Below, in pieces: positions 19,134-52,547 of a DNA stretch of 64,000 nt (its first letter is position 1; the number at the start of each line of letters is the position of its first letter). The DNA comes from Pristiophorus japonicus (Eukaryota). The stretch is from positions 219,728,001-219,792,000 of the forward strand of contig NC_091987.1 of the NCBI RefSeq assembly GCF_044704955.1, written 5' to 3'. The notes beneath the pieces were generated by a model. The model was not told the DNA's origin, did no database searches, and saw nothing but the letters and a program-made list of their open reading frames with translations. A program made the position numbers and the translations under genes.

Positions 19134-19134
19134 A

Positions 19135-25780: not shown

Positions 25781-25859
25781 TCATTGTGTGGCGACGGGCG
25801 ATGGTCTGGAGCAGAGCTTCAGCTCCTTGAGCCGCTGATGGATTAGGTAGGCTTGTAAT
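25781..25859 (-). CDS. SAXO-like gene, candidate terminal exon (LQAYLIHQRLKELKLCSRPSPVATQ*)
   Basis: Acceptor ccccaagtgcag|. Phase 2 matches the GC donor at 27244. AATAAA lies about 175 nt downstream. Confidence 0.5.
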
Positions 25860-25964
25860 CTGCACTTGGGGAGGGGGGTTAGACTGGGAAAGTGGGAGAG
25901 ATGTACCATTCAAGACATTGTAGGTATTTCAGAAGAAAACTGAAGCAGAATATATACATTGTAG

Positions 25965-26420
25965 AATCATACAGTCTCGAAGGAGTCCTCTCGTCCCATC
26001 GTGCTCTTTGAAAGAGCGATCCAGTTAGTCCCCATCCCCCACAGCCCTGCACACTTTATATTTTCAAGTATTTATCCAATTCCCTTTTATAAACGATCAC
26101 TGAATCTGCTCCCACCGCCCGCTCAGTCAGCACCTTCCAGATCATCATAACTCGTTAAAAAATATCTCATCTCCCCTCTGGTTTTTGTGCCAACTGTATT
26201 ACCGTGTCCTCTGGTTATCGACCCTTCAACATGCAAACAGCTTCTCATTTAATCGATCAGATTTCCCCTGAACCTTCTCTACTCGAGGGGAACATTCCCA
26301 GCTTCTCCAGTCTCCATGTATCTGAAGTCCCTGATACCATTCTAGTAAATCTCCTCTGCAAGGCCTTGACATCCTTCCTGGGGTCAGCCATTGGACACAC
26401 GACTCCAGCATTTTATAAAA
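25965..26420 (-). mobile_element. Decayed CR1 3' fragment
   Basis: Degenerate RT C-terminus and 3' UTR. Confidence 0.65.
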
Positions 26421-26514
26421 GGACTCTCATAACTTTGTACTTTTTGTCTGGAATTAGTGCCTTTGTACTGATTCCCGTACACCAGTATCTATCGCTCAGT
26501 TCTATACACCTTAT

Positions 26515-26820
26515 TCCACCTCAGCAATGTTTCAAAGTACTTCACAGCAGTGAACTATCTTAGAGTGCAGCAGCTGTTTTGTGGGCAGACATGGCACGAT
26601 GCACATAGGAACTTCCAGAACAGCAAACAATGGCCAGTTCATCTGTTCGTAGTGCTGCTGGCAGGATCAATGGCCAAGACATCGGGAGAATTCCTTGCTT
26701 TTCACTGAGTACCATCAGATTTATAATGGCCACCTGGGTCAGCTGAGCAGTCTTGATTAACCAGGAGCAGTACTTGAACCCAATCTCATCCAGAGACAAG
26801 ACTATTACCAATTGAGCCAA
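26515..26820 (-). mobile_element. Decayed SINE (SacSINE1/DeuSINE-like)
   Basis: Similar to the copies near 46900, 53700 and 60470. Confidence 0.5.
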
Positions 26821-27244
26821 ACATCCCAAATTACCTTGGTACAGTGCTATGGAAGATATAAAGTGACCAGAACAGTAATAGTGTGGTCAGCATTTAACAG
26901 AAAAGTTCAGCTTCTGTCACCTGTTGCTCAAACACGCCTCAGCACGGGGTCACATGTGTTGCAATATTTAATCGAGCCTGGTGCCCTCCACACATGTGCT
27001 CTTGATTTCAGCCTGGCTGCTCAGCGAGAGCAGACTTTGTACTCCCACCCACAGGGAGTGTAGGTGAGCAGGACCATCGCCCTTGCTCACTCTTGTTCTC
27101 CAAGTGTTGGCCACTGCCCTGATGATGCCCATCTCGGAAAATATATTGCCAAATCAAACTGTTGGGAAACGAGTATATTTCACAGGAGGCTTTGGCAGTT
27201 CCTGTGGAAGCAAAGCAAGAACAGATGAATGGTGTGGTGCTTGC

Positions 27245-27348
27245 CTGTTGTTGGGGGTGATCTTTTGCTGGAAAACTGGCTTCATTGGCTTGTAGTCACA
27301 TTTCGGGGTGAAATCTTGTCTGGTGATTGATAAATTGTCGATCTTCCC
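27245..27348 (-). CDS. SAXO-like gene exon 8 (GKIDNLSITRQDFTPK...); 3' boundary uncertain
   Basis: Acceptor gtaacag|, phase 0, Mn-like motif SITRQDF. Ends at CAG|gcaagc or reads through to TGA at 27156-27154. Confidence 0.75.
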
Positions 27349-27604
27349 CTGTTACACAGACACCGGACCGAGAGTTATAGCCCCAGTGGAGACACTGCCA
27401 CAGCAGCAAAATGTATTGGCCGACCAAAATCACTACGGTTTTGTCTCGAGGTTGCTACTGGAGATAACTTGGGGACAACAACATAGAGAACAGAGTACGA
27501 CACAACACAAAATCAGTAACCTCACAAGGCCAAGATACCTGTTGTGGGAAATGTAAGGATAGCATTAATGCAGTGAGGAATCGTTCCCTGACATGGGAAT
27601 CAAT

Positions 27605-27993
27605 GCTGTACCTGCCCTGGGAGTGTTTGATAGGACAGTATAGAGGGAGCTTTACTCTGTATCTAACCCCGTGCTGTACCTGCCCTGGGAGTGTTTAATG
27701 GGACAGTGTAGAGGGAGCTTTACTCTGTATCTAACCCCGTGCTGTACCTGCCCTGGGAGTGTTTGACGGGACAGTGTAGAGGGAGCTTTACTCTGTATCT
27801 AACCCCCTGTACCTGCCCTGGGAGTGTTTGATGGGACAGTGTAGAGGGAGCTTTACTCTGTATCTAACCCCCTGTACCTGCCCTGGGAGTGTTTGATGGG
27901 ACAGTGTAGAGGGAGCTTTACTCTGTATCTAACCCCGTGCTGTACCTGCCCTGGGAGTGTTTGATGGGACAATGTAGAGGGAGCGTTACTCTG
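27605..27993. repeat. 65-68-bp minisatellite, copy 2
   Basis: About 6 units of CTGTACCTGCCCTGGGAGTGTTTGATGGGACAGTGTAGAGGGAGCTTTACTCTGTATCTAACCCCGTG. Confidence 0.95.
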
Positions 27994-27998
27994 CTTAC

Positions 27999-28178
27999 CG
28001 GTGCCGGGTCGTAGGTTCCTTCGTAAGCGTCGCCATGGCGCACTCTGGCCTTCGGCCCCCAGTCCTTGAAGGAGTTTCTATAGGCTGTTTCGTCGTCAAA
28101 TTTGCCACCTCTTGAACTCTGCATCGTCCTGGGCCGGGCGAGCTGTGTGTGTTTAGTTAACGGTGTTTGATACGCAAG
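27999..28178 (-). CDS. SAXO-like gene exon 7 (LAYQTP...KFDDETAYRNSFKDW...YDPAP)
   Basis: Acceptor ctctcag| and donor CCG|gtaagc. 180 nt, phases 0/0, Mn-like motif. Confidence 0.88.
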
Positions 28179-29084
28179 CTGAGAGGAGATAAAGTGCAGA
28201 AAGATGATGCTGGCCACACCAGGAAAATGTTGCTGTTGCAAAGTGGGGAAGGAAAGCAGGCCCTCCGTTTCCACCAATGAACTTTCAAAGGGGAGCTGGA
28301 CAGATTGCTGGTTAAGTTTGAGGGTGGAGGTGACAATGAAGCGATGAAATAAGCCACAGGGCACTATAGCTCCTGTACAGCTGGTGCATGGAAAGGAAGG
28401 TCCCCTGTGGCGGGAGGGGGAATACAGATCAATGTTGGCAAGGTATGGATTGATTCTGGGCTTGTACTCAGATTCACTAGGATTAAATGGCTGCGATAGC
28501 GTCTATGACCAGGGAGATTGTCCACGGGCTATAGGAGGAGTGAGATTCATTGCTGATATTTTCAAAGTGCATCTAAAAAGGAGACCACTGGCTTACAATT
28601 TCCAGATTGGTGAATTCGGGGACTGACCTGAAATGGGTGCAGTCCATGTTCACTGTCTCTAAATAATCTCAGAGATAGAAGAAACCAGCAAGAAAAATAC
28701 CAGATTTCACCCTCCCTGCAGACGATGGGGGTAAACATCGCCACCTCTGAGGTGGGTGTGAATGCAGGTCCCGGAGATTAAATGTCCAACACACTGCGGT
28801 CCGGTAGGGCAGGAACCTGCCATCCTCACCCAGTCTGGTCTATACGTGACCCCAGTCTGCACCAATGTGCTGCTAACCATTCTCGCAACCATTCTGCCGT
28901 ATCAAGCCAACACTGATTCAAGGAGCAGGCCCATCACCACCACCTTGGGGCAACTAAGAATGGGTAATACATACCAGCCTTGCCTTTAGGTGGTCAGTGA
29001 ACTGCATGCTGTGAAAAATACAACGCAATAGGCAGCCGTTCGGGAGAGCCAGGCAGCGGCGGCAGCGAGCGGGCAGAGGATAAC

Positions 29085-31490
29085 GAGCGGGCAGAGGATA
29101 ACGAGCGGAAGGAGCAGAGAGAGCACAGTGCGGGAGGAGCAGAGAGAGCACAGTGCGGGAGGAGCAGAGAGCACAGTGCGGGAGGAGCAGAGAGCACAGT
29201 GCGGGAGGAGCAGAGAGAGCACAGTGCGGGAGGAGCAGAGAGAGCACAGTGCGGGGCAGTGAGCGGGAGGACCAGAGAGAGCACAGTGCGGGGCAGTGAG
29301 CGGGAGGACCAGAGAGAGTACAGTGCGGGAGGAGCAGAGAGAGTACAGTGCGGGAGGAGCAGAGAGAGCACAGTGAGCGGGAGGAGCAGAGAGAGCACAG
29401 TGAGCGGGAGGAGCAGAGAGAGCACAGTGAGCGGGAGGAGCAGAGAGAGCACAGTGAGCGGGAGGAGCAGAGAGAGCACAGTGAGCGGGAGGAGCAGAGA
29501 GCACAGTGCGGGAGGAGCACAGTGCGGGAGGAACAGAGAGCACAGTGCGGGAGGAGCAGAGAGAGCACAGTGCGGGGCAGTGAGCGGGAGGACCAGAGAG
29601 AGCACAGTGCGGGGCAGTGAGCGGGAGGACCAGAGAGAGTACAGTGCGGGAGGAGCAGAGAGAGCACAGTGAGCGGGAGGAGCAGAGAGAGCACAGTGAG
29701 CGGGAGGAGCAGAGAGAGCACAGTGAGCGGGAGGAGCAGAGAGAGCACAGTGAGCGGGAGGAGCAGAGAGAGCACAGTGAGCGGGAGGAGCAGAGAGAGC
29801 ACAGTGAGCGGGAGGAGCAGAGAGAGCACAGTGAGCGGGAGGAGCAGAGAGAGCACAGTGAGCGGGAGGAGCAGAAAGAGCACAGTGAGCGGGAGGAGCA
29901 GAGAGAGCACAGTGAGCGGGAGGAGCAGAGAGAGCACAGTGAGCGGGAGGAGCAGAGAGAGCACAGTGAGCGGGAGGAGCAGAGAGAGCACAGTGAGCGG
30001 GAGGAGCAGAGAGAGCACAGTGAGCGGGAGGAGCAGAGAGAGCACAGTGAGCGGGAGGAGCAGAGAGAGCACAGTGAGCGGGAGGAGCAGAGAGAGCACA
30101 GTGAGCGGGAGGAGCAGAGAGAGCACAGTGAGCGGGAGGACCAGAGAGAGCACAGTGAGCGGGAGGAGCAGAGAGAGCACAGTGAGCGGGAGGAGCAGAG
30201 AGAGCACAGTGAGCGGGAGGAGCAGAGAGAGCACAGTGCGGGAGGAGCAGAGAGCACAGTGCGGGGCAGTGAGCGGGAGGACCAGAGAGCACAGTGCGGG
30301 AGGAGCAGACAGCACAGTGCGGGAGGAGCAGAGAGAGCACAGTGCGGGACGAGCAGAGAGCACAGTGCGGGGCAGTGAGCGGGAGGACCAGAGAGAGCAC
30401 AGTGCGGGAGGACCAGAGAGAGCACAGTGCGGGAGGAGCAGAGAGAGCACAGTGAGCGGGAGGAGCAGAGAGAGCGCAGTGCGGGGCAGTGAGCGGTAGA
30501 CCAGAGAGAGCACAGTGCGGGAGGACCAGAGAGAGCACAGTGCGGGGCAGTGAGCGGGAGACCAGAGAGAGCGCAGTGCGGGAGGAGCAGAGAGCACAGT
30601 GCGGGGCAGCGAGCGGGAGGACCAGAGAGAGCACAGTGCGGGAGGAGCAGAGAGCACAGTGCGGGGCAGCGAGCGGGAGGACCAGAGAGAGCACAGTGCG
30701 GGAGGACCAGAGAGAGCACAGTGCGGGAGGACCAGAGAGAGCACAGTGCGGGAGGAGCAGAGAGCACAGTGCGGGGCAGCGAGCGGGATGACCAGAGAGA
30801 GCACAGTGCGGGAGGAGCAGAGAGAGCACAGTGCGGGAGGACCAGAGAGAGCACAGTGCGGGGCAGTGAGCGGGAGACCAGAGCGCACAGTGCGGGGCAG
30901 TGAGCGGGAGACCAGAGAGCACAGTGCGGGGCAGTGAGCGGGAGGAGCAGAGAGCACAGTGCGGGGCAGAGAGCGGGAGGAGCAGAGAGCACAGTGCGGG
31001 AGGAGCAGAGAGCGCAGTGAGCGGGAGGAGCAGAGAGCGCAGTGCGGGAGGAGCAGAGAGCGCAGTGAGCGGGAGGAGCAGAGAGAGCACAGTGCGGGAG
31101 GAGCAGAGAGAGCACAGTGCGGGAGGAGCAGAGAGAGCACAGTGCGGGAGGAGCAGAGAGAGCACAGTGCGGGAGGAGCAGAGAGAGCACAGTGCGGGAG
31201 GAGCAGAGAGAGCACAGTGCGGGAGGAGCAGAGAGAGCACAGTGCGGGAGGAGCAGAGAGAGCACAGTGCGGGAGGAGCAGAGAGAGCACAGTGCGGGAG
31301 GAGCAGAGAGAGCACAGTGCGGGAGGAGCAGAGAGAGCACAGTGCGGGAGGAGCAGAGAGAGCACAGTGCGGGAGGAGCAGAGAGAGCACAGTGCGGGAG
31401 GAGCAGAGAGAGCACAGTGCGGGAGGAGCAGAGAGAGCACAGTGCGGGAGGAGCAGAGAGCACAGTGCGGGGCAGCGAGCGGGAGGAGCA
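29085..31490. repeat. ~2.4-kb purine-rich minisatellite with 23/25/27-bp units (GCACAGTG[AG]CGGGAGGAGCAGAGAGA)
   Basis: Homogeneous 27-mer block (~29660-30235) and 25-mer block (~31085-31450). Confidence 0.97.
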
Positions 31491-31544
31491 CCTCCAGTGA
31501 AAACAAAAAAAAAAGTGTCAGGAGTTAGGTTCTAAATTAAAAAA

Positions 31545-32152
31545 CTGAAAAGTCGGGAAGTTATGCTAAACCTGTATGGAACCTGGATTAGACCACACGT
31601 GGAGCACTGCGTACAGTTCTGGTCGCCATATTATAAAAAGGATGTAGAGACACTGGAGAGGGTGCAGAGAAGATTTACAAGGATGATACCAGAAATGCGA
31701 GCGTATACGTATCTGGAAAGGTTGAACAGGCTGGGTCTCTTTTCTCTTGAAAAAAGGCTGAGGGGTGACCTATTAGAGGTATTTAAAATTATAAAAGGTT
31801 TTAATAGGGTGGATACAAAGAGAATGTTTCCACTTGTCGGGAAGAGCATAACTAGAGGCCATCGATATAAGATAGTCACCAAGAAATCCAAGAGGGAATT
31901 CAGAAGAAACTTCTTTACCCAGAGAGGAGTGAGAATGTGGAACTCGCTGCCACAGGGAGGGGTTGAGGCAAATAGTATCGATGCATTTAAGGGGAGGCTG
32001 GACAAGAATATGAGGGAGAGGGAATAGAGGGTTATGCTGATAGATTTAGATGAGGAAAAATGGGAGGAGGCTCGAGTGGAGCATAAACGCCGGCATGGAC
32101 TGGTTGGGCCGAATGGTCTGTTTGTGTGTCATATCATGTGTGATCCTCTGTA
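31545..32152 (+). mobile_element. CR1 3' fragment
   Basis: Peptides RPHVEHCVQFWSP and RRNFFTQR, followed by a 3' UTR. Confidence 0.9.
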
Positions 32153-34217
32153 AAACAACAACTAAAGCAACAACTGCAAAATGGCTATAGTGACATCACA
32201 ACCAGAGAAGGAGCTGATTGGTGAGGAGCTGATAAGTATTTCTAGTTAATAGTCTATGATGTAAAGACATGGCAGGGCAGCTCAGTCCTGTGAAATGCAC
32301 ATCCCGTGTCCTGGACAACCACATGTGCAGGAAGTGTTGTCGGCTGGAGGAGCTCGAGCTCCGGGTTCGGAGTTTGAGCAGTAGCTGGCATCACTGCGGT
32401 GCATCCATCAGGCTGAGAAGTTCATTGATGGCACGCTTCAGGAGGTGGTCACCCCGCAGTTTAAGAATGTGAGGAAATGGGTGACTGCCAGACAGAAGAG
32501 GACGACCACGCAGGTAGTGTAGGAGTCCCCTGAGTGCATCTTGCTCTCCAATCAGTATTCTGTTCTGACTACTGGTGAGGGCGCTAGTGCCTCTGGGGAG
32601 TACAGCCAGAGCCAAATCCACGGCACCACGGGTGGCTCAGCTGTACAAAGGGGGAGGAAGAGGAGTGAAAGAGCAATAGTAGTAGGAGATTCAATAGTTA
32701 GGGGAGCAGACAGGCGTTTCTGCGGCCGAAGACGTGATTCCAGGATGGGATGTTGCCTCTGGTGCCAGGGTTAAGGATGACGCTGAGCGGCTGCAGAACA
32801 TTCTGAGGGGGGAGGGTGAACAGCCAGAGATAATGATCCATATCGATACCAACGACCTAGGTAGTAAGAGGGATGAGGTCCTGCAGACAGTGTTTAGGGA
32901 GCTAGGAAAAATATTAAAAAGCTGGACCTCAAAAGGTAGTAATCTCCGGATTACTCCCGGTGCCATGCACAAGTGAGTACAGAAATAGGAGGATAGAGCA
33001 GATGAGTGCGTGGCTGGAGGGATGGTGCAGGAAGGCTTTAGATTCCTGGGGCATTGGGACCGATTCTGGGGGAGGTGGGACCTGTACAGGCCGGACAGGT
33101 TGCACCTCAGCAGGACCGGAATCAATATCCTTGCGGGAGGGTTTGCTCGTGCTGTTGGGGAGGGTTTAAACTAATTTGGCAGGGGTATGGGCACCAGGAT
33201 GTAACATTAGAAAGGGTAAATAAAGTGCTCAAAGGATTGGGAGAGGCATAGAGCAAGGTATTAGGTGGGGTCAAACTAAGAGAGAATACAGGATGGTTTA
33301 CAGTGTGCGTGTGTGAATGCATGAAGCATAGTAAACAAGGTACAAATAGCCACATGGGAATATGATGTTGTGGCAATAACTGAGACCTGGCTCAAAAAAG
33401 GGTAGGATTGGGTATTAAATATTCCTGGTTGTAAGGTGTTCATGAAAGATAAGGGAGGAAAGTTAGGAGGTGGTGTGGCAGTATTTGTTAAGGAAAATAT
33501 TACAGTGCTGGAGAGGGAGGATGTCCTGGAAGGGAGTTCAGAAATAATAGAAGGGCCATCACACCGCTGGGCCATCACACTACTAAGTGTATTCTATAGA
33601 TCACCAAATAGTGGGAAAGATATGGAGGAGCAAATTTCAGAGAAATTACAGAGAGGTGCAAGAATCATCGAGTAGGGATAATGGGGGACTTCAACTATCC
33701 GAATATAGACTGGGATAGTAATAGGGTAAAGGGCAGAGAGGGGGACGGATTTCTGAAGTGTGTTCAGGAGAACTTTCTTGATCAGTATGTTTCCAGGGGG
33801 GAGGCATTGCTGGATCTGGTTCTGGGGAATGAGGTGGGTCAGTCGGGGAACATTTAGGGAACAGTGATCATAGTATCATAAGGTTTAGATTAGCTATGGA
33901 AAAGGTTAGAGAGCAATCTAGAGTAAAAATGTTAAATGGAGGAAGGCCAATTTCGGTGGGATGAGAACAGGTCTGGCCCGAGTAAACTGGAATCAAAGAT
34001 TGGCAGGTAAAACTGTAATGGAACAATGGGCTGCCTTTAAATAGTTCAGGTACAGTCAAGGTACATTCCCACTAGGGGGAGGCGGGGGGGGGGGGAAGGC
34101 AGGGCAGCTAAAGTCAGGGTTCCCTGGATGACGAAACAGATAGAGAGAGTATGAAGAATGAGAAAAAGAGTGCGTATGACAGACGTCAGGTTGCTAATAC
34201 ATCTGTTAATAAGGCTA

Positions 34218-34440
34218 CAGGTGCGCCGTCCAAAATTCCCAGTTCCGGAATTCAGAATCCGGACCGATCAGTGGCAAGGTCGTCCAGAAACCAGAAAATG
34301 TTCCGAAATCCGACTCCCCCGGCCCGACCTCTCCCCCCCCCCCCCAGTGGCCCTGGCCTGACCTCCCCCCCACACGGGCAAATACATTCCGGAATGATCC
34401 GGAATGGCCTCGGTCCCGAGGTTTCCGGACCTCGCACCTG
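34218..34440. mobile_element. Tc1/mariner-pogo-type MITE nested in CR1
   Basis: TA TSDs at 34216-34217 and 34441-34442; TIRs CAGGTGCG..GTCC. Confidence 0.82.
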
Positions 34441-35124
34441 TATACATAGAAAGGTCAGACGAGGTGAAAAAGAAAATCAGAGGGGCAAAGAGAGGGTATG
34501 AGAATAGAATGGCAGCCAACATAATCCAAAAGTCTTCTCCAGGCATATAAATAGTAAAAGGGTAGTACGGGAGGGGTGGGGCCGATTAGGGACCAAGAAG
34601 GAGACCTACACACGGAGGCAGAGGTTACAGCTGAGGTACTAAATGAGAACTTTGCATCTGTCTTCACCAAGGAAGAGGTCATTGCCACAGACATAGTGAG
34701 GGAGGAGATAGTGGAGACATTGGATAGGATAAAAATTGATAAAGAGGAGGTATTATAAAAGGCTGGCTGAACTTAAAATCGCTAACTCACCAGGACCGAA
34801 TGGGATGCATCCTAGGATGCTGAGGGAATTGAGGGCGGAAATCACAGAGGTACTGGCCTTAATATTCCAATTCTCCATAGATACAGGGATGGTGCCAGAT
34901 AACTGGAAAATTACAAATATTACACCACTGTTCAAAAAAAGTGTGTAAAGATAAATCCAGCAACTACAGGCCGTGGGGAAGCATTGAGAAACAGTAATCA
35001 GGGACAAAATTAACAGTCACTTGGATAGGGGTGGATTAATTAAGGAAAGCAGCATAGATTTGTTGAAGGCAAATAGTGTTTAACCAACGAGATAAAGTTT
35101 TTTGATGAGGTAACAGAGAAGGTC

Positions 35125-35549
35125 GTACTCGTTAGAGTTCAGAAGGATGAGGGGTGATCTTATAGAAACATTTAAAATAATGAAAGGGATAGACAAGATA
35201 GAGGCAGAGAGGTTGTTTCCACTGGTCGGGGAGACTAGAACTAGGGGGCACAGCCTCAAAATACGGGGGAGCCAATTTAAAACCGAGTTAAGAAGGAATT
35301 TCTTCTCCCAGAGGGTTGTGAATCTGTGGAATTCTCTGCCCAAGGAAACAGTTGAGGCTAGCTCATTGAATGTATTCAAGTCACAGATAGATTTTTAACC
35401 AATAAGGGAATTAAGGGTTACGGGGAGCGGGCGGGTAAGTGGAGCTGAGTCCACGGCCAGATCAGCCATGATCTTATTGAATGGCGGAGCAGGCTCGAGG
35501 GGCTAGATGGCCTACTCCTGTTCCTAATTCTTATGTTCTTATGTTCTTA
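35125..35549 (+). mobile_element. Young CR1 3' fragment nested in an older CR1
   Basis: Near-identical to the 3' ends at 37132 and 38695; TTCTTATG tail. Confidence 0.92.
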
Positions 35550-36640
35550 GGGGTAATACAGTTGTCATAGTGTACATGGATTTACAAAAGACTTTTGATG
35601 AAAGAAAGACTTGGATTTATAAAGTGCCACATAATAGGCTTGCAGCAAAGTTGAAGCCCATGGAATAAAAGGGACAGTGGCAGCATGGATACAGGATTGG
35701 CTCAGTGACAGGAAACAGAGAGTAGTGGGGAACGGTTGTTTTTCGGACTGGAGGAAGGTAGACAGTGGTGTTCCCCAGGGGTTGGTACTGGGACCACTGC
35801 TTTTATTGATAGAGGCATAGAGTACAAAAGGGTGGCGATGATGATGAACCTGTATAAACTATTGGTTCAGCCCCAACTGGAGTATTGTGTCCAATTCTGG
35901 GCACCACACTTTAGGAAGGATGTGAAGGCCTTGGAGAAGTTGCAGAAAAGATTTCCGAGAATGATTCCAGGGATGAGGGACTTCAATTACATGGATAGAC
36001 TGGAGAAGCTGGGATTGTTCACCTTAGAGCAGAGAAGATTGAGAGGAGATTTGATAGAGCTGTTCAAAATCATGAAGGGTCTGGACAAGGTAGATAGAGA
36101 GAAACTGTTCCCATTGGTGGAAGGGTGGAGAACCAGAGGACACAGATTTAAGGTGATTGGCCAAAGAACCAAAGACGAAGGAAGAAAAGTATTTTTTTTA
36201 CACAACGAGTGGTTAGGATCTGGAATGCGCTGCCCGAGAGGGTGGTGGAGGCAGACTCAATCACTGCTTTCAAAAGGGAATTGGATAAGTACCTGAAGGA
36301 AAAACATTTGCAGAGCTCGGGGGAAAGGGCGGGGGAGTGGGACTGGCCAAGAGTTGGCATGGGCCGAATGGCCTTCCGTGCTGTAAGTATTCTATGATTC
36401 TATGTTCAGCCCATTGAGAATGTGCTGGTGATGGCTCTTTACTGGAGTCGTTCCTTTCCTCATGTCTTTATAGACCCTTCCCATCCTTGTGCTGCATTAG
36501 CAGGTCTCAGTCAGCTGGCGCAGGCTGGGGAGAATAAGTCAGTGTGGGATTCCCACCCTCATCACCGCCCAGTGGCCCCTGCTGGTAAGAGGGATCTTCA
36601 CATCGCCCGCCCTGTGCGCTGGCAGACCGAGAGCAGTTAC

Positions 36641-36776
36641 CTTGCTCATTGTGTCGGAATCAATGGTGCCTTCTGTTTCTGACAGATTGTCCCTGTATTT
36701 GATCAGATCGGGGCGGGGGTACACAGTGGGGTCCCAGCCGATGTATGATTCTTTCTGAGTCGTGTTGAAGTCCGTA
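36641..36776 (-). CDS. SAXO-like gene exon 6 (TDFNTTQKESYIGWDP...DSDTMSK)
   Basis: Acceptor ctccacag| and donor AAG|gtaact. Phases 2/0 match both neighbours. Confidence 0.88.
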
Positions 36777-42489: not shown

Positions 42490-43665
42490 ATTTAATTTTT
42501 TGAGGCGGTCACAATGAGGGTCGTTGAGGGTAATGCGTTTGATGTAGTGTATATGGATTTCAGCAAGGCAGATTGGTCACGAAAGTAAAAGCCCATGGGA
42601 TCCAGGGCAAAGTGGTAAGTTGGATCCAAAATTGGCTCAAAGGCAGAAAGCAGAGGGTAATGGTTGAAGGCTGTATCCAGTGGGGTTCTGTAGGGCTCAA
42701 TCCCTTGCTTTTTGTGATATATATCAATAATCTAGACTTGAATATAGGGGGTATGATTAAGACGTTTGCAGATGATACTAAAGTTGGCCGTGTGGTTGAT
42801 AATGAAGAAGAAAGCTGTAGACTGCAGGAAGATACCAATCAACTGGTCAGGTGGGCAGAGCAGTGGCAAATGGAATTCAATCCGGAGAGAAGTGTGAGGT
42901 AATGCATTTGGGGAGAGCTAACAAGGCAAGGGAATACACATTAAATGGTAGGACACAGACATGTAGAGGAACAAAGGGACCTGGGAGTGCAGGTCCACAG
43001 ATCCCTGAAAGTAGCAGGCCAGGTAGATAAGGTGGTTAAGGCGGCATATGGAATGCTTGCCTTTATTAGCCGAGGCATAGAATATAAGAGCAGGGGGGGT
43101 TATGCTTGAACTGTATAAAACACTAGTTAGGCCACAGCTGGAGTACTGTGTGCAGTTCTGGTCACCACATTACAGGAAGGATGTGATTGCACTGGAGAGG
43201 GTACAGAGGGGATTTACGAGAATGTTGCTGGGAGTGGAGAATCTTAGCTACGAGGACAGATTGGATAGGCTGGCTTTGTTTTCCTTGGAACAGAGAAGGC
43301 GGAGGGGAAACCTCATTGAGGTATATTTAAAATTATGAGCGGCCCAGATAGAGTGGATAGGAAGGACCTATTTCCCTTAGCAGAGGGGCATAAATTTAAA
43401 TCATTGGTAGGAGGTTCAGAGGGGATTTGAGAGGAAATGTCTTGACCCAGAGGGTGGGGGTCTGGAACTCACTGGCTGAAAGGGTGGTGGAGGCAGAAAC
43501 CCTCACATTTAAAAAATACTTGGATGTGCTCCTGAAGTGCCGTAACCTGCAGGGCTACGGAGGAGCTGGAAAGTGGGATTAGGCTGGGTAGCTCTTTGTT
43601 GGCCGGTGTGGACACGATGGGCCGAATGGCCTTCTCCTGTGCTGTAACTTTCTATCATTCTGTGA
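42490..43665 (+). mobile_element. 5'-truncated CR1
   Basis: Peptides FADDTK and RPQLEYCVQFWSP, followed by a 3' UTR. Confidence 0.9.
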
Positions 43666-43678
43666 TCAGCATGCTTAC

Positions 43679-43892
43679 GGCAGGTTGCGGTTAATTTGCA
43701 GGTTGCCCGCAGTCCATGCTCCCACGATGGGCCTATGCCACAGGTGTTTGTATTCCGGGAAATCCTTGCGATAGGTGCTGAGCAAATCCATGGGAGGGCG
43801 CTTGTCCTCTGCTCGTTTCTTCGACGTGGGCTTTCTCTCGATTGGTAAAGGCTGAAACGTGACTTGGTAAGTGGTATTCAAATCATGAACAC
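43679..43892 (-). CDS. SAXO-like gene exon 5 (VHDLNTTYQVTF...MDLLSTYRKDF...)
   Basis: Acceptor ttactaaag| and donor GCC|gtaagc. Phases 1/2; two Mn-like motifs. Confidence 0.9.
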
Positions 43893-44011
43893 CTTTAGTA
43901 ACAGAGTAACACATTGTAAATCATTTCATTCAAATACAGCAACTTCTCAAACTCCTGAAATACTGCCACAAAGTTTACCCTTTTTGTCTCCCAGCCCACA
44001 CACCATTCCTT

Positions 44012-44311
44012 ACCTCTGTATCTAACCCGTGCTGTACCTGCCCTGGGAGTGTTTGATGGGACAGTGTAGAGGGAGCTTTACTCTGTATCTAACCCCCTGT
44101 ACCTGCCCTGGGAGTGTTTGATGGGACAGTGTAGAGGGAGCTTTACTCTGTATCTAACCCCCTGTACCTGCCCTGGGAGTGTTTGATGGGACAGTATAGA
44201 GGGAGCTTTACTCTGTATCTAACCCCGTGCTGTACCTGCCCTGGGAGTGTTTGATGGGACAGTGTAGAGGGAGCTTTACTCTGTATCCAACCCCCTGTAC
44301 CTGCCCTGGGA
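44012..44311. repeat. 65-68-bp minisatellite, copy 3
   Basis: Same unit as at 27605. Confidence 0.95.
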
Positions 44312-44639
44312 ATACGTTTTGATGAATAAGGGACTATTGTCCATCTCTGACCTCCCTGACCTTTAATCACTGTGGAAGTACAGAGTCCCACAGGACACTC
44401 GTGAGCATTGGCTCTGCCTCACCATACCTTCGAACTTTAAGTTGTCTGGCATGGATTTTGCCTTTTTTTGCCCTTTGCAGGCATTGTCAGACTTTTCTGC
44501 TTGTATTGTGGTCTGCTGGATTTTGTTCTGGTTTTGGGTGCTGTGACATCCTGGAGAACAGAAACAGAATGTTACAGGTCTGGTTGCATTGTCGTGTGTC
44601 TGCGGCGTACACGGAACCTGTTACACACACAGCAACAGG

Positions 44640-45260
44640 AGAAGGCCGTACTCCAGACGGGGTCTGACCAAGGCTCTGTACAACTGAAGTCTCCCCTTTG
44701 TATTCTAGACCCTTGCGATACAGGCCAATATTCCATTCGCCTTTTAGATTGCTTTCTGTACTTGTCCCCTGGCATTTAATGTACTTGGACTTGCAAATCT
44801 CAATGCTCCTCATCACTCATCATTGAGAAAATATTCCGATTTATCTTTCTTGGGTTCAAAATGGATGACTTCACACTTGCTCAGATCAAACTCCATTTGC
44901 CACAGTTCTGCCCCCTCACTTAGTCTGTTTTTGTCCCTTTGCAACTTTCCACTCCCCTCTGCCCTTGGTACTTCCTAATTTAGTGTTGTCTGCAACTTCT
45001 TCCAACCTTTACTAAATATAGTTATAAGTTGTGGCTCCAGAACCAATCCCTGGCGAGCACCACTTTGCACAAGTGCCCATTTATAGTACATGCCCTCCCT
45101 GCCCACTCTCGCAACCCATGTGCAAAGACTACCTCCAGTTCTATCTGCTCTCGTGCCTTCCGAATGTCCATGGTGACTATCCATGGACACTCCCTCATCC
45201 ACCTTATTAGTGACGTCAAAAAATCCAAGCACATTAGGCAAACATGACTTATCCTGAACG
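44640..45260 (-). mobile_element. Old CR1 RT fragment
   Basis: Degenerate KSCLxN and SGxxQGxVL motifs. Confidence 0.65.
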
Positions 45261-45492
45261 TTCATCCTTCTTCAATGTTATGGCTAAATCCTAGCTCTCT
45301 CCACCTCCTCACCCCTGCCCCAGGATTGGGATCATGCCTGATGCCCCACCGGTGGACTGCTCACCTGCAGAGGCCCCATGGGGGAGGTACTGGAGTGCAA
45401 TGACTAAGCGTCACCTGGTGAGAGCCAATACCTTTAGGAGAAGAGAGAAAAGTTGAGGAAAAAGGAAAAGGCAAGGGCTGTCAGAGCTTCAC

Positions 45493-45661
45493 CTGCAGTG
45501 GCTGGAGCGTCCCTGCATCCCCCTCGAGGGTTCGGCTTCTGGTGGTGGCTGACATTGGCAGTGCTGCCACAGGTGTTCAACCCAGTGCAGGGCCTACTGG
45601 TGGGGAGACCATCTTTCAGGGTCATCCCCTTCGTCTGGATGTATTTAGAGCAAAGTGGTTC
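45493..45661 (-). CDS. SAXO-like gene exon 4 (EPLCSKYIQTK...DAPATA)
   Basis: Acceptor ttttgtgcag| and donor CAG|gtgaag. Phases 0/1 bridge exons 3 and 5. No clear Mn motif. Confidence 0.72.
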
Positions 45662-45747
45662 CTGCACAAAATAACTCGGGTCAGCAGAGAACGAGAAGCA
45701 AGTCATTATTACACAGCACAGTCACCCCGACACATTCCACAAAACAG

Positions 45748-46582
45748 GCTGCCCTGTGGGACCTTTCCTCCCGGCGCCCTGCCCTGTGGGACCGGGCTCT
45801 CCCCCCCCCCCCCGGTGCCCTGTGGGACCAGGCCCTTCCCCCTCCCCCCCACCCCCCGGTGCCCTGTGGGACCGGGCTCTCCCCCCCCCCGGCATCCTGT
45901 GCGACCGGGCCCTCCCCTTTCACCCCCAGGTGCCCTGCCCTGTGGGACCGGACCCTTTTCCCCCACCCCCCCCCGGTGCCCTGTGGGACCGGGCCCTTCC
46001 CCATTCTCCCCCCCACCCCCTGTGCGACCGGGCCCTCCCCTTTCACCCCCAGGTGCCCTGCCCTGTGGGACCGGGCCCTTTTCCCCCACCCCCCCCCGGT
46101 GCCCTGTGGGACCGGGCCCTTCCCCATTCTCCCCCCCACCCCCTGTGGGACCGGGCCCTTTCCCCCCCGGTGCCCTGTGGGACTGGGCTCTCCCCACCCC
46201 CCGGTGCCCTGTGGGACTGGGCCCTTCCCTCCCCCCCCCCCCCCCCCGGTGCCCTGTGGGACCGGGCCCTTTCCCCCCCGGTGCCCTGTGGGACCGGGCC
46301 CTTTCCCCCCCGGTGCCCTGTGGGACCGGGCCCTTCCCCATTCTCCCCCCCACCCCCTGTGGGACCGGGCCCTTTCCCCCCCGGTGCCCTGTGGGACCGG
46401 GCCCTTTTCCCCCGCCCCCCCGGTGCCCTGTGGGACCGGACCCTTTTCCCCCGCCCCCCCGGTGCCCTGTGGGACTGGGCCCTCCCCACCCCCCGGTGCC
46501 CTGTGGGACTGGGCCCTTCCCTTCCCCCCCAGGTGCCCTGCCCCCCCCCCCCACCCCCCCCGGTGCCCTGTGGGCCCTTCCC
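45748..46582. repeat. C-rich minisatellite (GGTGCCCTGTGGGACCGGGCCCT + C-run)
   Basis: Variable-length tandem units filling most of intron 3. Confidence 0.95.
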
Positions 46583-46650
46583 GCGATGTTTCCCAGCAAT
46601 GAAAAGTAAACACAGTGACACGTCAGCTGGGAGCTGCCCTTTGCCCGTAC

Positions 46651-46763
46651 CTTCTGCGTTTTGGGCCCAAATTCAGCGCACTGCGTGGTTTCGCACTGCA
46701 TGACTGGCGGGTTGCGGTATGGTGGAGTGCGTAAGGGCCTCTTGCTGCTGCGGGGCTGGATAT
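46651..46763 (-). CDS. SAXO-like gene exon 3 (IQPRSSKRP...MQCETTQCAEFGPKTQK)
   Basis: Acceptor tgtttcag| and donor AAG|gtacgg. Phases 1/0. Resembles SAXO1 PRESFKP...MEGLTTSRRDFGP (recalled). Confidence 0.88.
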
Positions 46764-46869
46764 CTGAAACAGGATCGACAGGGGGTTCATTGTGCACCAA
46801 TCTCAGACTTGCCAATCCATGTACCAGCCTCCCGCACTGCTCACCTCGCACCAGTGAAAGGAGAGATGA

Positions 46870-47040
46870 CAATGGGGTTTATATGGTACCTCAGGATGGC
46901 CAAAAGCACTTTACAGCCAATGAAGTACTTTTGAAGTGTTGTCACTGTTGTAATGGAGGAATCGTGGCAGCCAAATTGCGCACAGCAAGCTCCCACAACC
47001 AGGTAATCTGTTTTAGTGATGTTGGTTGAGGGATAAATGC
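46870..47040 (-). mobile_element. SINE fragment (SacSINE1/DeuSINE-like)
   Basis: Reverse complement of the sequence at ~53810-53990. Confidence 0.75.
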
Positions 47041-47149
47041 ATTACACGTCCAGTAAAGTGACAGCATTGCCGGGACAGGAGGAAATTCGTGCTTCAGTTA
47101 CCGCAGCACTAATGCACTGCCCAAAACCACCAACAATTTCAAACTTCAG

Positions 47150-47482
47150 TGTAACTTCCTCCAGCCCTTCGGGGAACTCTGCGCTTTCCAATTCTGGCCT
47201 CTTGCCCATTTTAAATCGCCCCACCATTGGTGGCTATGCCTTCAGCTGCTGAGGCCCCAGGCTCTGGAGTTCTCCACCTCTCCACCTCTCCACCTCTCCA
47301 CCTCTCCACCTCTCCACCTCTCCACCTCTCCACAAAACCTATCTTTTTGACCAAGTTCTTGGTCACCTGTCCTAACTTCTCCTTATGTGGCTCAGAGCCA
47401 ACTTTTATTTGATAACGCTCCTGTGAATCGCCTTTGGACATTTTACCATATTAAAAAGACACTATATAAATGCAGGTATTTG
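47150..47482 (+). mobile_element. L2-like LINE 3' end containing a (CTCCACCT)n microsatellite at ~47271-47332
   Basis: AAAACCTATCTTTTTGACCAAG...CTATATAAATGCA, a typical L2-type terminus. Confidence 0.6.
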
Positions 47483-47864
47483 TTGTAAAGAAGCTCACCT
47501 TTAGAAAGAAATCAAATTTGCAATTAGAACTGGGATTTTTTTCTACACAGCTTAGTTTATACAAAATGAACACACGCAATTTTCTTTAATGCCTGTATGA
47601 TTTTCAACTGGGTTTTGCTCACAGCAGTGTCCAGATTAATCGTGAATTCCTGGACAATCCTGGAGGGTTGCTGACCTGAAGCTCGGCAGTGTAAAGGGGA
47701 CGATGCTACTGAGCAACCGGTATAATGCTTGCAGTGGACCCCACGTGAGGCATGGCAGAGGGGAGGGGCAAGTCTGGACCTGGAGGGCACCGTGAGCATT
47801 GGCATTCTGGGTTTACCAATCTGCCGGTCATTCAGAGGCAGAGTGCGGGAAGTATAGAGCGCTT

Positions 47865-48340
47865 TCCCCCCACCGCAATCTCCAAGACCCAAACCCCCCC
47901 CCCGCATCACCCAAACCCCCCTGCTATCACCCACAACCCCCCCCCGCATCACCCCAACCCCCCTATCACCCCAGCCCCCCCCCCGCATCACCCCAACCCC
48001 CTGCTATCACCCACAACCCCCCCCCGCATCACCCCAACCCCCCTATCACCCTAACCACTGTGCTATCACCCACAACCCCCCCCCCCGCATCACCCCAACC
48101 CCCCTGCTATCACCCACAACCCCCCCCCGCATCACCCCAACCCCCCTATCACCCCAACCACTGTGCTATCACCCACAACCCCCCCCCCGCATCACCCCAG
48201 CCCCCCCCCCGCATCACCCCAACCCCCTGCTATCACCCACAACCCCCCCCCCGCATCACCCCAACCCCCTGCTATCACCCACAACCCCCCCCCGCATCAC
48301 CCCAACCCCCCTGCTATCACCCACAACCCCTCCCCCCCCA
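47865..48340. repeat. C-rich minisatellite (GCATCACCCCAACCCCCTGCTATCACCCACAACCCC...)
   Basis: Direct tandem units with variable C-runs. Confidence 0.93.
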
Positions 48341-48547
48341 TAATCCCCTGCACCTGCACCCCCAAAGATCCTCCTGCACCAACAACTCCCCACACCCCCA
48401 CCCAGTCACATCTCCAGGCACAAATGTCAGTTCAGCAACCCTCCTGAGACCAGCACTCGACGGTAAACCCAAGCAGGAAAGAGGGGAGGCGGAAGTGACT
48501 GCCCCGAGAGCAGACGAGTGGGATACTGTGGTACATCCGGCTCTTAC

Positions 48548-48657
48548 TCAGAGGCTGTACGAAGGCGGACTGGTAGTGGGTCAGCAGGCAGTCTCCGTTA
48601 ATTGAGCGTGGTTGAATCGATTGCTTCTTCTTACAGTTCTGATGGTGTTTGTGTTGT
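48548..48657 (-). CDS. SAXO-like gene exon 2 (QHKHHQNC...DCLLTHYQSAFVQPL)
   Basis: Strong acceptor ctactcctgcag| and donor TGA|gtaaga. Phases 2/1. Confidence 0.9.
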
Positions 48658-49279
48658 CTGCAGGAGTAGAGGAGAGAGAGTTGATCAGGGAGTTGTGACC
48701 GGGAGCAACCGTTAACTAACCAGTGCTGTCGGGTACAACTTGATCCATGTTTTCCCTGGACTGTATATCGGGTTTCCAACCCTCCAGGATTGTCCCAGAG
48801 TCTCCAGGAACTCCTGGACATTGCAACTCGGCAACAAAATCAGAGGGGTAGGAAACAAACTGTGTTTTTGTTTCCATTTTCTTTGCATAATTTAGTTTAT
48901 TAAATATTGGAGATGGGGAATGGGTGTTTGTCCAGGTGGCGTGGTGAGAGACCATGTGATAAAACCTCCAGGAATACACCCCTGTGAAATGTGTCATTAT
49001 ACTGCTCGTCTAGTACGGTTTGACCTTTATTAATTTTACAATAATTGTCTTGCATAAGCAAGAAAAAGCAGTTCAAACTGTTCTGTGATGTTATTCCCCA
49101 TGGTTATCAGAGACCAACGGTGAACCGCTAACATGGACCAATAACAGAAGAGATTTTTCAGCTGGGCTGTTGCTACAGACCAATCGCAAAGCTCAAAAGG
49201 CACTGAGCCAATGCTTGCACTGTTACTGGGAGCCAATGAAACATCACTGTCAAACTTCACAGGCATTGGTCCAGAGCAA

Positions 49280-50070
49280 AGGAACACGAGGCCATTCAAC
49301 CCCTCGAGCCTGTTCCGCTATTCAATTAGATCATGACTGATCTGTATCTTAACTCCATTTACCTTCCTTTGTTTCCTTACTCTTAATAACTTTACCCAAC
49401 AAAAATCTCAGTCTCAGATTTGACGTTTCCAATTGACCCCCGGCCTCAGCAGCTTTTTGGGGGAGGAAGTTCCAGATTCCCACCACCCTTTGTGTGAAGA
49501 AGTGCTCCCTGACATCAGCCCTGAACAGCCGGGCTCTAACTTTAAGGTTCTGCCCCTTGTTCTGGACTCCCCCAACCAGAGGAAATTGTTTCTCTCTCTC
49601 TACCCCATCAACTCCTTTAAGTCATCTTAAACACTTCAATTAGATCGCCCCTTAATTTTACTCTCAGGAATACAAGCTTAGTCTATGCAACCCGTCGTCA
49701 TAATTTAACCCTTTCAGCCCCAGTATCATTCTGGTGATGCTGCACTGCTCCCCCTCAGAGGCCAATATATCCCCCCCGAGGGGTCCAGGACTGGACACAG
49801 TGTTCAGACAGGGTCTGAACGAGGCTCTGCACATTGGAGCATCACTTCCTCCCGTTGTATTCCAGACCCTTTTAAAGTTATTTTCATACCTGTCCACTAG
49901 CTGTTAGTGATTTCTGTACTTAGGCCCCTAAATCCCCAAGTTCCCAGCTTCTCACCATTTGGAAAATACTCTAAATCGATCTTCCTTGGGTCCAGAGTGG
50001 GTGACCTGACACTTCTGTATATCGACCTCCATCTAGTACAGTTTTGCCTGCTCACTGAATCCATCAATGT
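49280..50070 (-). mobile_element. Decayed CR1 3' fragment
   Basis: GGCCATTCAACCCCTCGAGCCTG 3'-UTR motif and a degenerate RT C-terminus. Confidence 0.75.
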
Positions 50071-50306
50071 TAGTCAATATGTGACGTGCTGACCAGCAAC
50101 CAATGAGATTCCAGGAAAGAACACACCACAGACCGCTACCAATAGGCATCCGGGCCATTGATTATTGTAATGCCCAGGATAATGGGACAAAACTTACACA
50201 GAAAATACTCCTTGCTTTGCCCCAGGGAGTGAGTGAAGCAGAAACCATTGGATCTTCTAGGGGAAAAAGGGATAAATATTTGAAGCAGAGGAAGATATGG
50301 GGCCAT

Positions 50307-51395
50307 GGGATTAGTTTGGGATTGATACAGGGCTATGGGGAGAGAGTGGGGCAGTGGGATTAGTTTGGGATTGATACAGGGCTATGGGGGGGAAGAGTGG
50401 GGCAGTGGGATTCATTTGGGATTGATACAGGGCTATGGGGGGGGGGGGGAAGAGTGGGGCAGTGGGATTCGTTTGGGATTGATACAGGGCTATGGGGGGA
50501 GAGCGGGGCAGTGGGATTAGTTTGGGATTGATACAGGACTATGGGGAAGAGAGCGGGGCAGTGGGATTAGTTTGGGATTGATACAGGGCTATGGGGAAGA
50601 GAGCGGGACAGTGGGATTAGTTTGGGATTGATACAGGGCTATGGGGAGAGAGCAGGACAGTGGGATTAGTTTGGGATTGATACAGGGCTATGGGGAAGAG
50701 AGCAGGACAGTGGGATTAGTTTGGGATTGATACAGGGCTATGGGGAAGAGAGCGGGACAGTGGGATTAGTTTGGGATTGATACAGGGCTATGGGGAAGAG
50801 AGCAGGACAGTGGGATTAGTTTGGGATTGATACAGGGCTATGGGGAAGAGAGCGGGGCAGTGGGATTAGTTTGGGGATTGATACAGGGCTATGGGGAAGA
50901 GAGCGGGACAGTGGGATTAGTTTGGGATTGATACAGGACTATGGGGAAGAGAGCGGGGCAGTGGGATTAGTTTGGGATTGATACAGGGCTATGGGGAAGA
51001 GAGCGGGACAGTGGGATTGATACAGGACTATGGGGAAGAGAGCGGGGCAGTGGGATTAGTTTGGGATTGATACAGAGCTATGGGGAAGAGAGCGGGACAG
51101 TGGGATTAGTTTGGGATTGATACAGGGCTATGGGGAGAGAGCAGGACAGTGGGATTAGTTTGGGATTGATACAGGGCTATGGGGAGAGAGCGGGACAGTG
51201 GGATTAGTTTGGGATTGATACAGGGTTATGGGGAGAGAGCAGGACAGTGGGATTAGTTTGGGATTGATACAGGGCTATGGGGAAGAGAGCGGGACAGTGG
51301 GATTAGTTTGGGATTGATACAGGGCTATGGGAGGAGAGTGGGGCAGTGGGATTAGTTTGGGATTGATACAGGGCTATGGGGGGGGGGGGGGGGGA
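50307..51395. repeat. 49-50-bp minisatellite (GGGATTAGTTTGGGATTGATACAGGGCTATGGGGAAGAGAGCGGGGCAGT), about 21 units
   Basis: Tandem repeat embedded in a CR1 3' terminus (~50215-51440). Confidence 0.96.
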
Positions 51396-52189
51396 AAGAG
51401 TAGACAGAATGGGATGGCTGGCCTCCTGTGCTGGAAACATCGGTTACTAATTAAACAGAATCACATCTGCAAAACAGCTAAAATAAAATTATTCATCTGG
51501 TAGTTTCATCCCGTGCATAACTTTACCAAAGTCTGTGGGTGTCGGTATGAGCCACCGATTATCCGGTCCATTACTTCCCCAGGTGTGATTGCAAAGTCCC
51601 GGGGGCTTTTACCAACCAGCCGCCTTTATACTAAGCACAGGGCGAGAGGGGGAGGGAGTCTTTGAATATTGATCACAAACCTTCATCTCCAGCACCGGGA
51701 ACATACGCTGCGTCTCACAAACCACGGCTCGGAACGGTCAACTCTGCTGACATACAATCTTCTCACAGAACTCGACACACAGCTTCAAACCAATCACATG
51801 ATATCTTCCAGAGTCTGAGGCAACACTCGTGAGAAAGAACCGGGCTTTAAATATCCCACACAAGGTCCCAAAGCGTTTCACGGCAGTTTGTGAGCTCTCT
51901 CCCCGCTTCTCCTGAAGGGATTGACCAAACAACACCCTCACTCCGGGGGCCCGTGTTCAAATGTAAGACCAGTCAATGAGTATTGCAGGACATTCAACCA
52001 TGGGGGGGATCACAGTCCAGCCTGAAATACTCTCCAGCAGTGATTGGTGGGTAGTGATCAGGAGCGGGACCTGTGGCTGAATTAACCCCGACCCTAACCC
52101 GGGGTGCTGAGGCTAATTGTTATTGTGATGCCATTTGTTAGTTATCAGTCACTCAGCACTGACTGGGGGGTGGGAGGCCAGGCACTAGG

Positions 52190-52365
52190 GGAGGGGGAGA
52201 AGGGGTACCGGTGGTGGGGAGGGAAGTGTGGGTGGGGGGCGGGGGGAGAAGGGGTACCGGTGGTGGGGAGGGAAGTGTGGGTGTGGGGTGTGTGGGGGGC
52301 GGGGGGAGAAGGGGTACCGGTGGTGGGGAGGGAAGTGGGGTGTGTAGGGGGCGGGGGGCGATAGG
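52190..52365. repeat. Short G-rich tandem repeat (about 3 units of 50-60 bp)
   Basis: GGGGGAGAAGGGGTACCGGTGGTGGGGAGGGAAGTG occurs three times. Confidence 0.85.
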
Positions 52366-52467
52366 GGAAATGAAGCCATGTTGAGGCGAGGGCAGTATAT
52401 ACGGGATGTAATGATGCTCCTTGAACCAGTCGTTGCCACAACACAGGCCACACTGGGAGCCTCTTAC

Positions 52468-52547
52468 CCGCAGTCACACAGCTCGCACAGGCACGAAAAC
52501 TCCGGGAACTCCAAGTCCTCTAGTCTCCCCACATCTCTCAGGGCCAT
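52468..52547 (-). CDS. SAXO-like gene first coding exon (MALRDVGRLEDLEFPEFSCLCELCDCG)
   Basis: Kozak-like context acaATGG and donor CGG|gtaaga. CxCELCxCG motif as in the SAXO1/2 N-terminus (recalled). Confidence 0.88.

Follow-up and report, generated by a model that had tools for sequence, protein, structure and literature searches.

The question raised by this locus is whether a set of minus-strand exons beside BUD13 in the shark Pristiophorus japonicus forms a genuine gene of the SAXO (FAM154) type and, if it does, whether that gene is SAXO1, SAXO2, or a separate relative. The exons lie in a window of 64,000 nucleotides (NCBI RefSeq assembly GCF_044704955.1, contig NC_091987.1, positions 219,728,001 to 219,792,000 of the forward strand), and all coordinates below are positions in that window. 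An initial annotation, made from the letters alone, had chained eight exons with GT/AG sites into a product of 394-398 amino acids (aa) and had proposed a hidden SAXO/FAM154-like gene, possibly an ohnolog retained in cartilaginous fishes and absent from mammals. We find an intact, spliced, single-copy gene, and consider it probable that this gene represents an ancient animal subfamily of the SAXO/STOP proteins, distinct from SAXO1 and SAXO2, whose product would, by analogy with SAXO1, bind and stabilise ciliary or sperm microtubules from the lumen.

Gene Structure and Transcript Evidence

When the eight proposed exons were spliced in silico on the minus strand, all were verified where they had been placed, with seven GT-AG introns and phases that chain throughout. 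The proposed end of the gene fared less well. Reading through exon 8 does give an open frame of 398 aa, ending at 27154; the conserved, transcript-backed 3' end, however, cuts exon 8 at a GC donor (last base 27245) and splices it to a ninth exon (25883-25781), and the resulting product of 402 aa has a C-terminal end that matches a public protein letter for letter. The read-through form was rejected as the main product because its tail is unconserved and the GC-AG splice is documented by a sequenced contig; sharks and rays conserve the tail encoded by exon 9, and the read-through tail was not found in relatives. Besides exon 9, the original exon list had missed a cassette exon (44550-44428) and a second acceptor of exon 5 (43862). 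The parts of the gene are as follows, with its Mn (microtubule-binding) motifs numbered by their ancestral positions.

52468..52547, minus strand: exon 1, coding part; ATG and first part of the N-terminal cysteine motif (CLCELCDCG), with a GT donor, A at -3 and an in-frame upstream stop
48548..48657, minus strand: exon 2; remainder of the Cys/His motif, then Mn motif 1; conserved, with AG/GT sites, and partly covered by a contig that continues into intron 1
46651..46763, minus strand: exon 3; PRSSKRP and Mn motif 2, joined to exon 4 in a contig of run X4
45493..45661, minus strand: exon 4; degenerate Ser/Thr-rich linker at the site of ancestral Mn motifs 3 and 4, present in the spliced contig
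44428..44550, minus strand: cassette exon 4b; 123 nt, in frame, AG/GT sites, open frame, 100% match to public isoform X1 (P0002)
43679..43892, minus strand: exon 5; Mn motifs 6 and 7
36641..36776, minus strand: exon 6; Mn motif 8 and first half of motif 9
27999..28178, minus strand: exon 7; remainder of motif 9, then Mn motif 10 and RVRHGD, a motif of the subfamily
27245..27348, minus strand: exon 8; Mn motif 11, ending at the non-canonical GC donor
25781..25883, minus strand: exon 9, coding part; conserved C-terminal motif PxCxLQxYL and stop
25244..25780, minus strand: 3' untranslated region (UTR), minimum length, with unbroken coverage by the spliced contig

The gene is not hidden, as public protein models of it exist. 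The last 318 aa of the nine-exon product are identical to a public Pristiophorus japonicus protein, and exon 7, used alone as a query (6 candidates), retrieved one protein at 100% identity, the "uncharacterized protein isoform X2" of this species. A sister model, isoform X1, includes the cassette exon and uses the exon-5 acceptor at 43862. The gene is thus already machine-annotated, as an "uncharacterized protein" here and under the names si:dkeyp-69c1.9 or "SAXO1/2-like" for its orthologs. The acceptor at 43862 removes 10 aa and breaks Mn motif 6; the long form of exon 5 occurs in public model P0001, and the short form in P0002 and in the X4 contig described below. Exon 4b is also found in catshark, skate and bamboo-shark models and is skipped in that contig, and exon 7 (motif 10 and half of motif 9) is missing in several ortholog models.

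Four sequencing runs (X1-X4), none on record as RNA, gave matches, those of runs X1-X3 covering repeats only. In run X4, a 1530-nt contig passes without a mismatch from exon 3 through exon 4 into exon 5 in its short form; the same contig joins exons 7, 8 and 9 and the 3' UTR down to 25244, with 0-2 mismatches per piece, and its joint at 25883-27245 shows GC..AG ends. Exon 6 was not directly matched in it, and the 134 nt left unplaced between the pieces for exons 7 and 5 fit that exon. The initial annotation had staked the existence of the gene on splice junctions and a SAXO-family match; this contig supplies the former, and the profile searches described below the latter. A retrocopy as the origin of the spliced contig was rejected, since no intronless copy was found in the assembly by a strict first-look genome search.

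The 5' end is less directly documented. Exon 1 is 81% identical to its counterpart in Heptranchias, and the same cysteine-motif start is found in six other shark and ray models. Because the exon 1-2 and 2-3 junctions were not seen in the X4 contigs and both public models of Pristiophorus japonicus begin in exon 3 (Met85), we infer the cysteine-motif isoform in this species from conservation. A 1049-nt X4 contig (window 48560-48750 and beyond) contains most of exon 2 followed by intron 1, and given this contig and the start of the public models in exon 3, an alternative 5' end without the cysteine motif may exist.

Membership in the SAXO/STOP Family

An N-terminal CxCExCxCG is common to the window protein, SAXO1/2-type proteins and bovine SAXO1, and the eight spaced motifs that had been noted together with it are all present as [ST]x5[FY]. 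They lie at residues 53, 89, 164, 196, 234, 271, 305 and 341, in line with the regular ~33-40 aa spacing of the family apart from a single 75-aa gap where motifs 3-5 have been lost; in an urchin member, the spacing is 35-38 aa in nine of ten intervals. With a motif matrix trained on 104 sites from SAXO1/2-type proteins only (threshold 5 bits), six of the eight window motifs scored above threshold; 200 shuffles averaged 0.05 such motifs and never exceeded 2.

Profile searches agree with the SAXO/FAM154-like assignment. For a profile of 12 shark sequences, the only match in the PDB was bovine SAXO1 (8OU0_D, E=8.6e-9), and the only chains matched at E<=1 by a profile of 43 subfamily sequences were bovine SAXO1 (E=7.6e-30) and five others of STOP-family, SPM1 or flagellar type. 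The Pfam family PF05217 was matched by 21 of the 43 members at E<=0.001, and no other Pfam family was matched. Single-sequence searches of the PDB with P0002, P0004 and the urchin member returned nothing relevant, and P0002 and P0004 alone gave no match to bovine SAXO1 at E<=10. The window protein is basic and Pro-rich (pI 9.35), and its atlas structure model, with a predicted template modelling score of 0.11, is consistent with disorder. Judged by its sequence, the protein belongs to the SAXO/STOP family of Mn-repeat proteins.

A Lineage Separate from SAXO1 and SAXO2

SAXO1/2-type loci occur elsewhere in the Pristiophorus genome, on the sequences C1, C17 and C3, each at >200 bits in a strict first-look profile search; the BUD13-side locus was not among the genome matches listed for the SAXO1/2 profile in that search, the best being C17, C1 and C3. 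The SAXO terminal exons on C17 and C1 match bovine SAXO1 at 1e-70 and 2e-66, respectively, one of the two presumably being SAXO1 and the other SAXO2. The SAXO1/2-type loci have one large terminal exon of ~310 codons, whereas the BUD13-side gene is divided into nine or ten small exons. A lungfish member searched against this genome in the same strict first-look manner gave five of five matches at the BUD13-side locus. The window gene and the named si:dkeyp-69c1.9 members are reciprocal best matches and fall in one clade.

A tree of 52 rows was built by quick search under LG+G4, with 18 redundant rows left out as well as SAXO5/TEX45, MAP6, MAP6D1, TEX26, C2orf73 and MDM1/SAXO6. The 17 vertebrate members form one side of a branch with a Shimodaira-Hasegawa-like approximate likelihood ratio (SH-aLRT) support of 99, and are nested in a 34-row group (SH-aLRT 99) that also holds proteins of amphioxus, urchin, annelid, brachiopod, mollusc, flatworm and coral; the SAXO1/2-type rows fall outside it. 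Constraining the vertebrate members to unite with vertebrate SAXO1/2 made the tree 277 log-likelihood units worse (approximately unbiased [AU] test, p=5e-41). Four subfamily signatures picked by eye from the alignment (PRSSKRP, GELP..G, RxRxGD and a C-terminal CxxQxYL) are found in 23-31 of 36 members and in 0 of 16 SAXO1/2-type proteins; three of the four occur in 27-31 of the 36 members and in the window protein, where GELP..G is degenerate. The initial annotation's claim of a separate paralog, rather than a plain 1:1 ortholog of SAXO1 or SAXO2, is upheld by these loci, the tree and the AU test, and on sequence grounds the BUD13-side gene is a SAXO subfamily distinct from both. Because the tree places coral and other invertebrate proteins in the group and the signatures are absent from SAXO1/2-type proteins, the split from SAXO1/2 is most likely older than the cnidarian-bilaterian split.

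One of the SAXO1/2-type matches is itself unusual. The locus L003 (C3:252091402-252095295) duplicates, at the DNA level, the C17 SAXO terminal exon together with its flanks, and is ~90% identical to L001 over 3.5 kb. A TAG stands close to the beginning of the exon, and no exons upstream of it are among those listed for C3. It is probably a pseudogenic segmental copy.

Erosion of the Repeats

Each of the twelve Mn positions is retained by 23-24 of 24 full-length proteins from bony vertebrates and by 14-15 of 15 from invertebrates, a count that excluded partial or short models (crocodilian, lizard, coelacanth, marsupial and short teleost). Among chondrichthyans, positions 3, 4, 5 and 12 are kept in 0 of 11 rows, and each other position in 8-11 of 11. 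Cassette exon 4b aligns to the bony-vertebrate stretch that bears Mn motif 5 but has lost its aromatic residue: none of the four rows with the cassette is aromatic at this site, and three have Ile. The aligned sequences point to an ancestral protein with 12 Mn motifs ~36 aa apart, of which sharks and rays retain eight, as two plus six with a degenerate linker between, a number that alternative splicing would change again. Some middle motifs are also missing from models of alligator, lizard and eel, and the erosion of the middle is therefore not unique to sharks.

Distribution across Animals

A first single-sequence search gave sharks and rays only (13 of 474 candidates), with open frames in 11 other shark and ray species, to which the last named search added more. 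An exhaustive profile search retrieved 159 proteins at E<=0.001 (150 listed); names were sought for 20 of the listed proteins, and 19 clusters had a name or a named member. Named members come from turtles, crocodilians, lizards, sturgeon, teleosts, amphioxus, urchins, Owenia, Lingula, Macrostomum and Pocillopora, and three come from marsupials (Monodelphis, Notamacropus and Sminthopsis) as short models of 205-249 aa. The last named search, with 57 proteins among 6735 candidates, adds lungfish, coelacanth, caecilians, axolotl, frogs, gar, bowfin, bichir and molluscs. Most of the vertebrate-like proteins among the 122 representatives outside the named reference set have an eel, catfish or frog row as their nearest one. 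With members in bony fishes, amphibians, reptiles and invertebrates, the notion of a gene specially retained in cartilaginous fishes does not hold, and neither does that of an ohnolog, since the group joins coral, flatworm, mollusc, urchin and amphioxus proteins rather than vertebrate SAXO1/2.

The proposed absence from mammals fails for marsupials, opossum, wallaby and dunnart all having members, and may yet apply to placentals. No bird, monotreme or placental name was found among the 57 proteins (3 of them without a name), which is weak evidence of absence, as the same search missed its query's own three marsupial proteins; loss in placental mammals may have occurred, and these searches are too insensitive to prove it. 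One mammal-like protein of 398 aa (P0140) is degenerate, has an unrelated N-terminus, resembles the marsupial rows in local features and groups with them at a support of 86 on long branches; it may be a placental remnant or else a mammalian member that is still intact. Five names sought in the lost-coding-gene tables and supplements of PMC5577775 were unmatched, and as these tables are keyed largely by identifiers, the result is uninformative.

Two sets of atypical sequences were also observed. Six divergent members (P0065, P0071, P0120, P0106, P0124 and P0126) have RxRxGD and no cysteine motif, two of them lying on long branches near the base of the subfamily in the tree, and they are possibly an extra invertebrate paralog group. 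Eleven models of 72-233 aa (P0104, P0110, P0111, P0114, P0121, P0128, P0131, P0135, P0138, P0141 and P0148) contain only the stretch around motifs 7-8; these are probably teleost and suggest strong truncation in that lineage.

Proposed Function and Alternative Explanations

The Mn motif is described in 10.1101/2022.09.29.510157 as a short helix with Thr/Ser and Tyr/Phe at its flanks. It binds on the luminal side, at the intradimer interface of alpha and beta tubulin; bovine SAXO1 has 12 such motifs and runs along protofilaments. SAXO spacing is given as ~8 nm per 40 aa (PMC13087473), and luminal entry of MAP6 as requiring its N-terminal Cys-rich domain (PMC10299642). Extended to the present gene, these descriptions suggest that the product would bind tubulin inside ciliary or sperm microtubules through its Mn motifs, as in SAXO1, and would stabilise those microtubules; the shark protein would act through a two-motif block and a six-motif block, and the conserved C-terminal motif may bind a partner. 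The mechanism expected is the known SAXO one, so the degree of surprise is moderate.

Several points weigh against this account. The public models and the contig pieces are without exon 1, and the models also without exon 2; run X4 may itself be a source of the public models and so need not be independent support. The two window motifs that fall below the matrix threshold score 2.6 and -2.0 bits, though at conserved positions. No Pfam SAXO match was obtained for the window's own exons (0 of 8) or the public models (0 of 2), and only 5 of 12 shark members match Pfam SAXO at E<=0.1. The tree applies a simple model to repeat proteins whose repeat register is ambiguous between subfamilies, and is rooted on three insect-like rows. 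No subfamily member was found in solved doublet structures, and nothing in the PDB is related to the urchin protein; data on localisation, tissue or binding were found for no member; and a proteomic study of Xenopus spermatid microtubules reports, in its available part, only Saxo2 and Saxo4 among SAXO proteins (10.64898/2026.08.28.747525).

One alternative keeps the gene and the subfamily and puts the main action of the product on non-axonemal microtubules (manchette-like spermatid arrays or neurons) or on the outer surface, like MAP6. Mn-motif proteins do act beyond axonemes, as reported for Saxo2 in Xenopus spermatid microtubules (10.64898/2026.08.28.747525) and for MAP6, which binds microtubules inside or outside (PMC10299642), and the missing members in solved doublets would fit. 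Yet the closest characterised relative of the subfamily is the sperm-tail protein SAXO1, and the Xenopus study names just the two SAXO proteins in the part available, though the Xenopus member carries the NCBI name "SAXO1"; we judge this alternative unlikely.

It is far less probable still that the shark gene is a decaying copy under relaxed selection with no effective microtubule binding. The disappearance of motifs 3, 4, 5 and 12 from every chondrichthyan row, the long shark branch in the tree, the broken motif 6 in the isoform of the X4 contig, and the short or partial models of teleosts, lizards, crocodilians and marsupials would all suit decay, but not the open frames in 11 other shark and ray species and more, the retention of the eight remaining motifs in 8-11 of 11 chondrichthyan rows, or the conservation of exon 1 in Heptranchias. 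We give almost no credence to the gene being an ohnolog or plain ortholog of SAXO1/2 that cartilaginous fishes alone have kept and all mammals lack: the shark-and-ray-only result of the first search and database names reading SAXO1 or SAXO2 speak for it, and it is refuted by the named marsupial and invertebrate members, with the bony-fish, amphibian and reptile ones, the separate SAXO1/2-type loci, the AU test and the small exons all standing against it.

The reading of the locus as an intact gene of an ancient subfamily, with a probable luminal role, can be extended to a second, unrecognised SAXO lineage that dates back to the cnidarian-bilaterian split, possesses a C-terminal motif for binding a partner, and occupies a site of its own in the lumen of ciliary or sperm microtubules. 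Sharks, teleosts and marsupials would have worn it down one repeat at a time, and placentals and birds would have lost it. We regard this extension as possible and on balance doubtful; if true, the lineage would explain inner-protein densities of non-mammalian axonemes for which the human and mouse gene lists offer no explanation. The subfamily is very old and unstudied: no paper was found on si:dkeyp-69c1.9 or its subfamily in a search that did not extend to subscription papers and most supplements, where the gene may be mentioned. Catalogues of microtubule inner proteins rest mostly on human, mouse, bovine, urchin and protist data, and the subfamily is not on the human Mn-repeat list (MAP6, MAP6D1, SAXO1, SAXO2, TEX45, TEX26, C2ORF73 and MDM1) in the available part of PMC10973386 (Table 1). 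It is a candidate for Mn-helix density that is still unassigned in the axonemes of fishes, amphibians, reptiles and invertebrates, and the loss of four of twelve repeats in sharks and rays offers a natural test of repeat number setting periodicity. We would also like to note a naming hazard, in that plain SAXO1 or SAXO2 database names stand on Xenopus, bichir, bowfin, gar and urchin members (P0226, P0224, P0221, P0217 and P0024); those placed in the tree fall in the BUD13-side subfamily, and such labels can mislead orthology-based work.

Genomic Neighbourhood

The tail-to-tail arrangement with BUD13 was borne out, the neighbouring gene being:

3063..23758, plus strand: BUD13, part inside the window (PF09736, E=5e-13); terminal exons and stop, start coordinate approximate

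The BUD13 stop ends at 23758, ~2 kb from the stop of the SAXO-like gene, and ZPR1 lies on the same strand as BUD13, 35-53 kb before the window. In human, ZPR1 and BUD13 are adjacent at 11q23.3, no SAXO-like gene is known to be annotated beyond BUD13, THY1 lies on 11q23, SAXO1 on 9p and SAXO2 on 15q. The zebrafish gene si:dkeyp-69c1.7 is described as similar to Thy1 in PMC6280125, a likeness that hints at a shared position beside BUD13 in other vertebrates.

Long GC-rich tandem arrays occupy introns at window 3870-7700, 9900-11550, 28950-31530, 45700-46600 and 52980-53750 and yield spurious open reading frames of up to 1090 aa. Many fragments in the window resemble reverse transcriptases of long interspersed nuclear elements, presumably of the CR1 type. 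Among the matches listed, the tubulin genes of this genome are intron-split only.

Comparison with Known Systems

The nearest known proteins are SAXO1 and SAXO2 (FAM154A/B; PF05217; 8OU0 chain D), with which the BUD13-side subfamily shares the CxCExCxCG start, Mn motifs [ST]x5[FY] at a spacing of 33-38 aa, 12 motifs in the ancestral form, a basic Pro-rich composition and low predicted order. Unlike them, it forms a separate clade that includes a coral member and has four signatures of its own; its gene has nine or ten small exons, adjoins BUD13-ZPR1 and encodes eight motifs in sharks, and single shark sequences of it fail to detect SAXO1. SAXO5/TEX45 is similar in general features, SAXO5 clusters being look-alikes of the window protein at 0.90-0.92, but its family PF15373 was matched by 0 of 43 subfamily members at E<=0.001. 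The STOP-family microtubule inner proteins of protists (Toxoplasma SPM1, Chlamydomonas flagellar 8GLV_zj and the DMIP1/STOP chains) match the subfamily profile at E=6e-6 to 6e-3 and carry Mn repeats that bind along protofilaments (10.1101/2022.09.29.510157); they are far more distant, with similarity confined to the repeat stretches. The closest counterpart is si:dkeyp-69c1.9, which is the same gene by database name in Heterodontus, Mobula, Leucoraja, Anguilla and Tachysurus and by the tree for the eel and Mobula rows, a likeness established without the zebrafish protein itself; this name and the "SAXO1-like", "SAXO2-like" or "uncharacterized" NCBI models are machine annotation only, and many of the teleost models are short.

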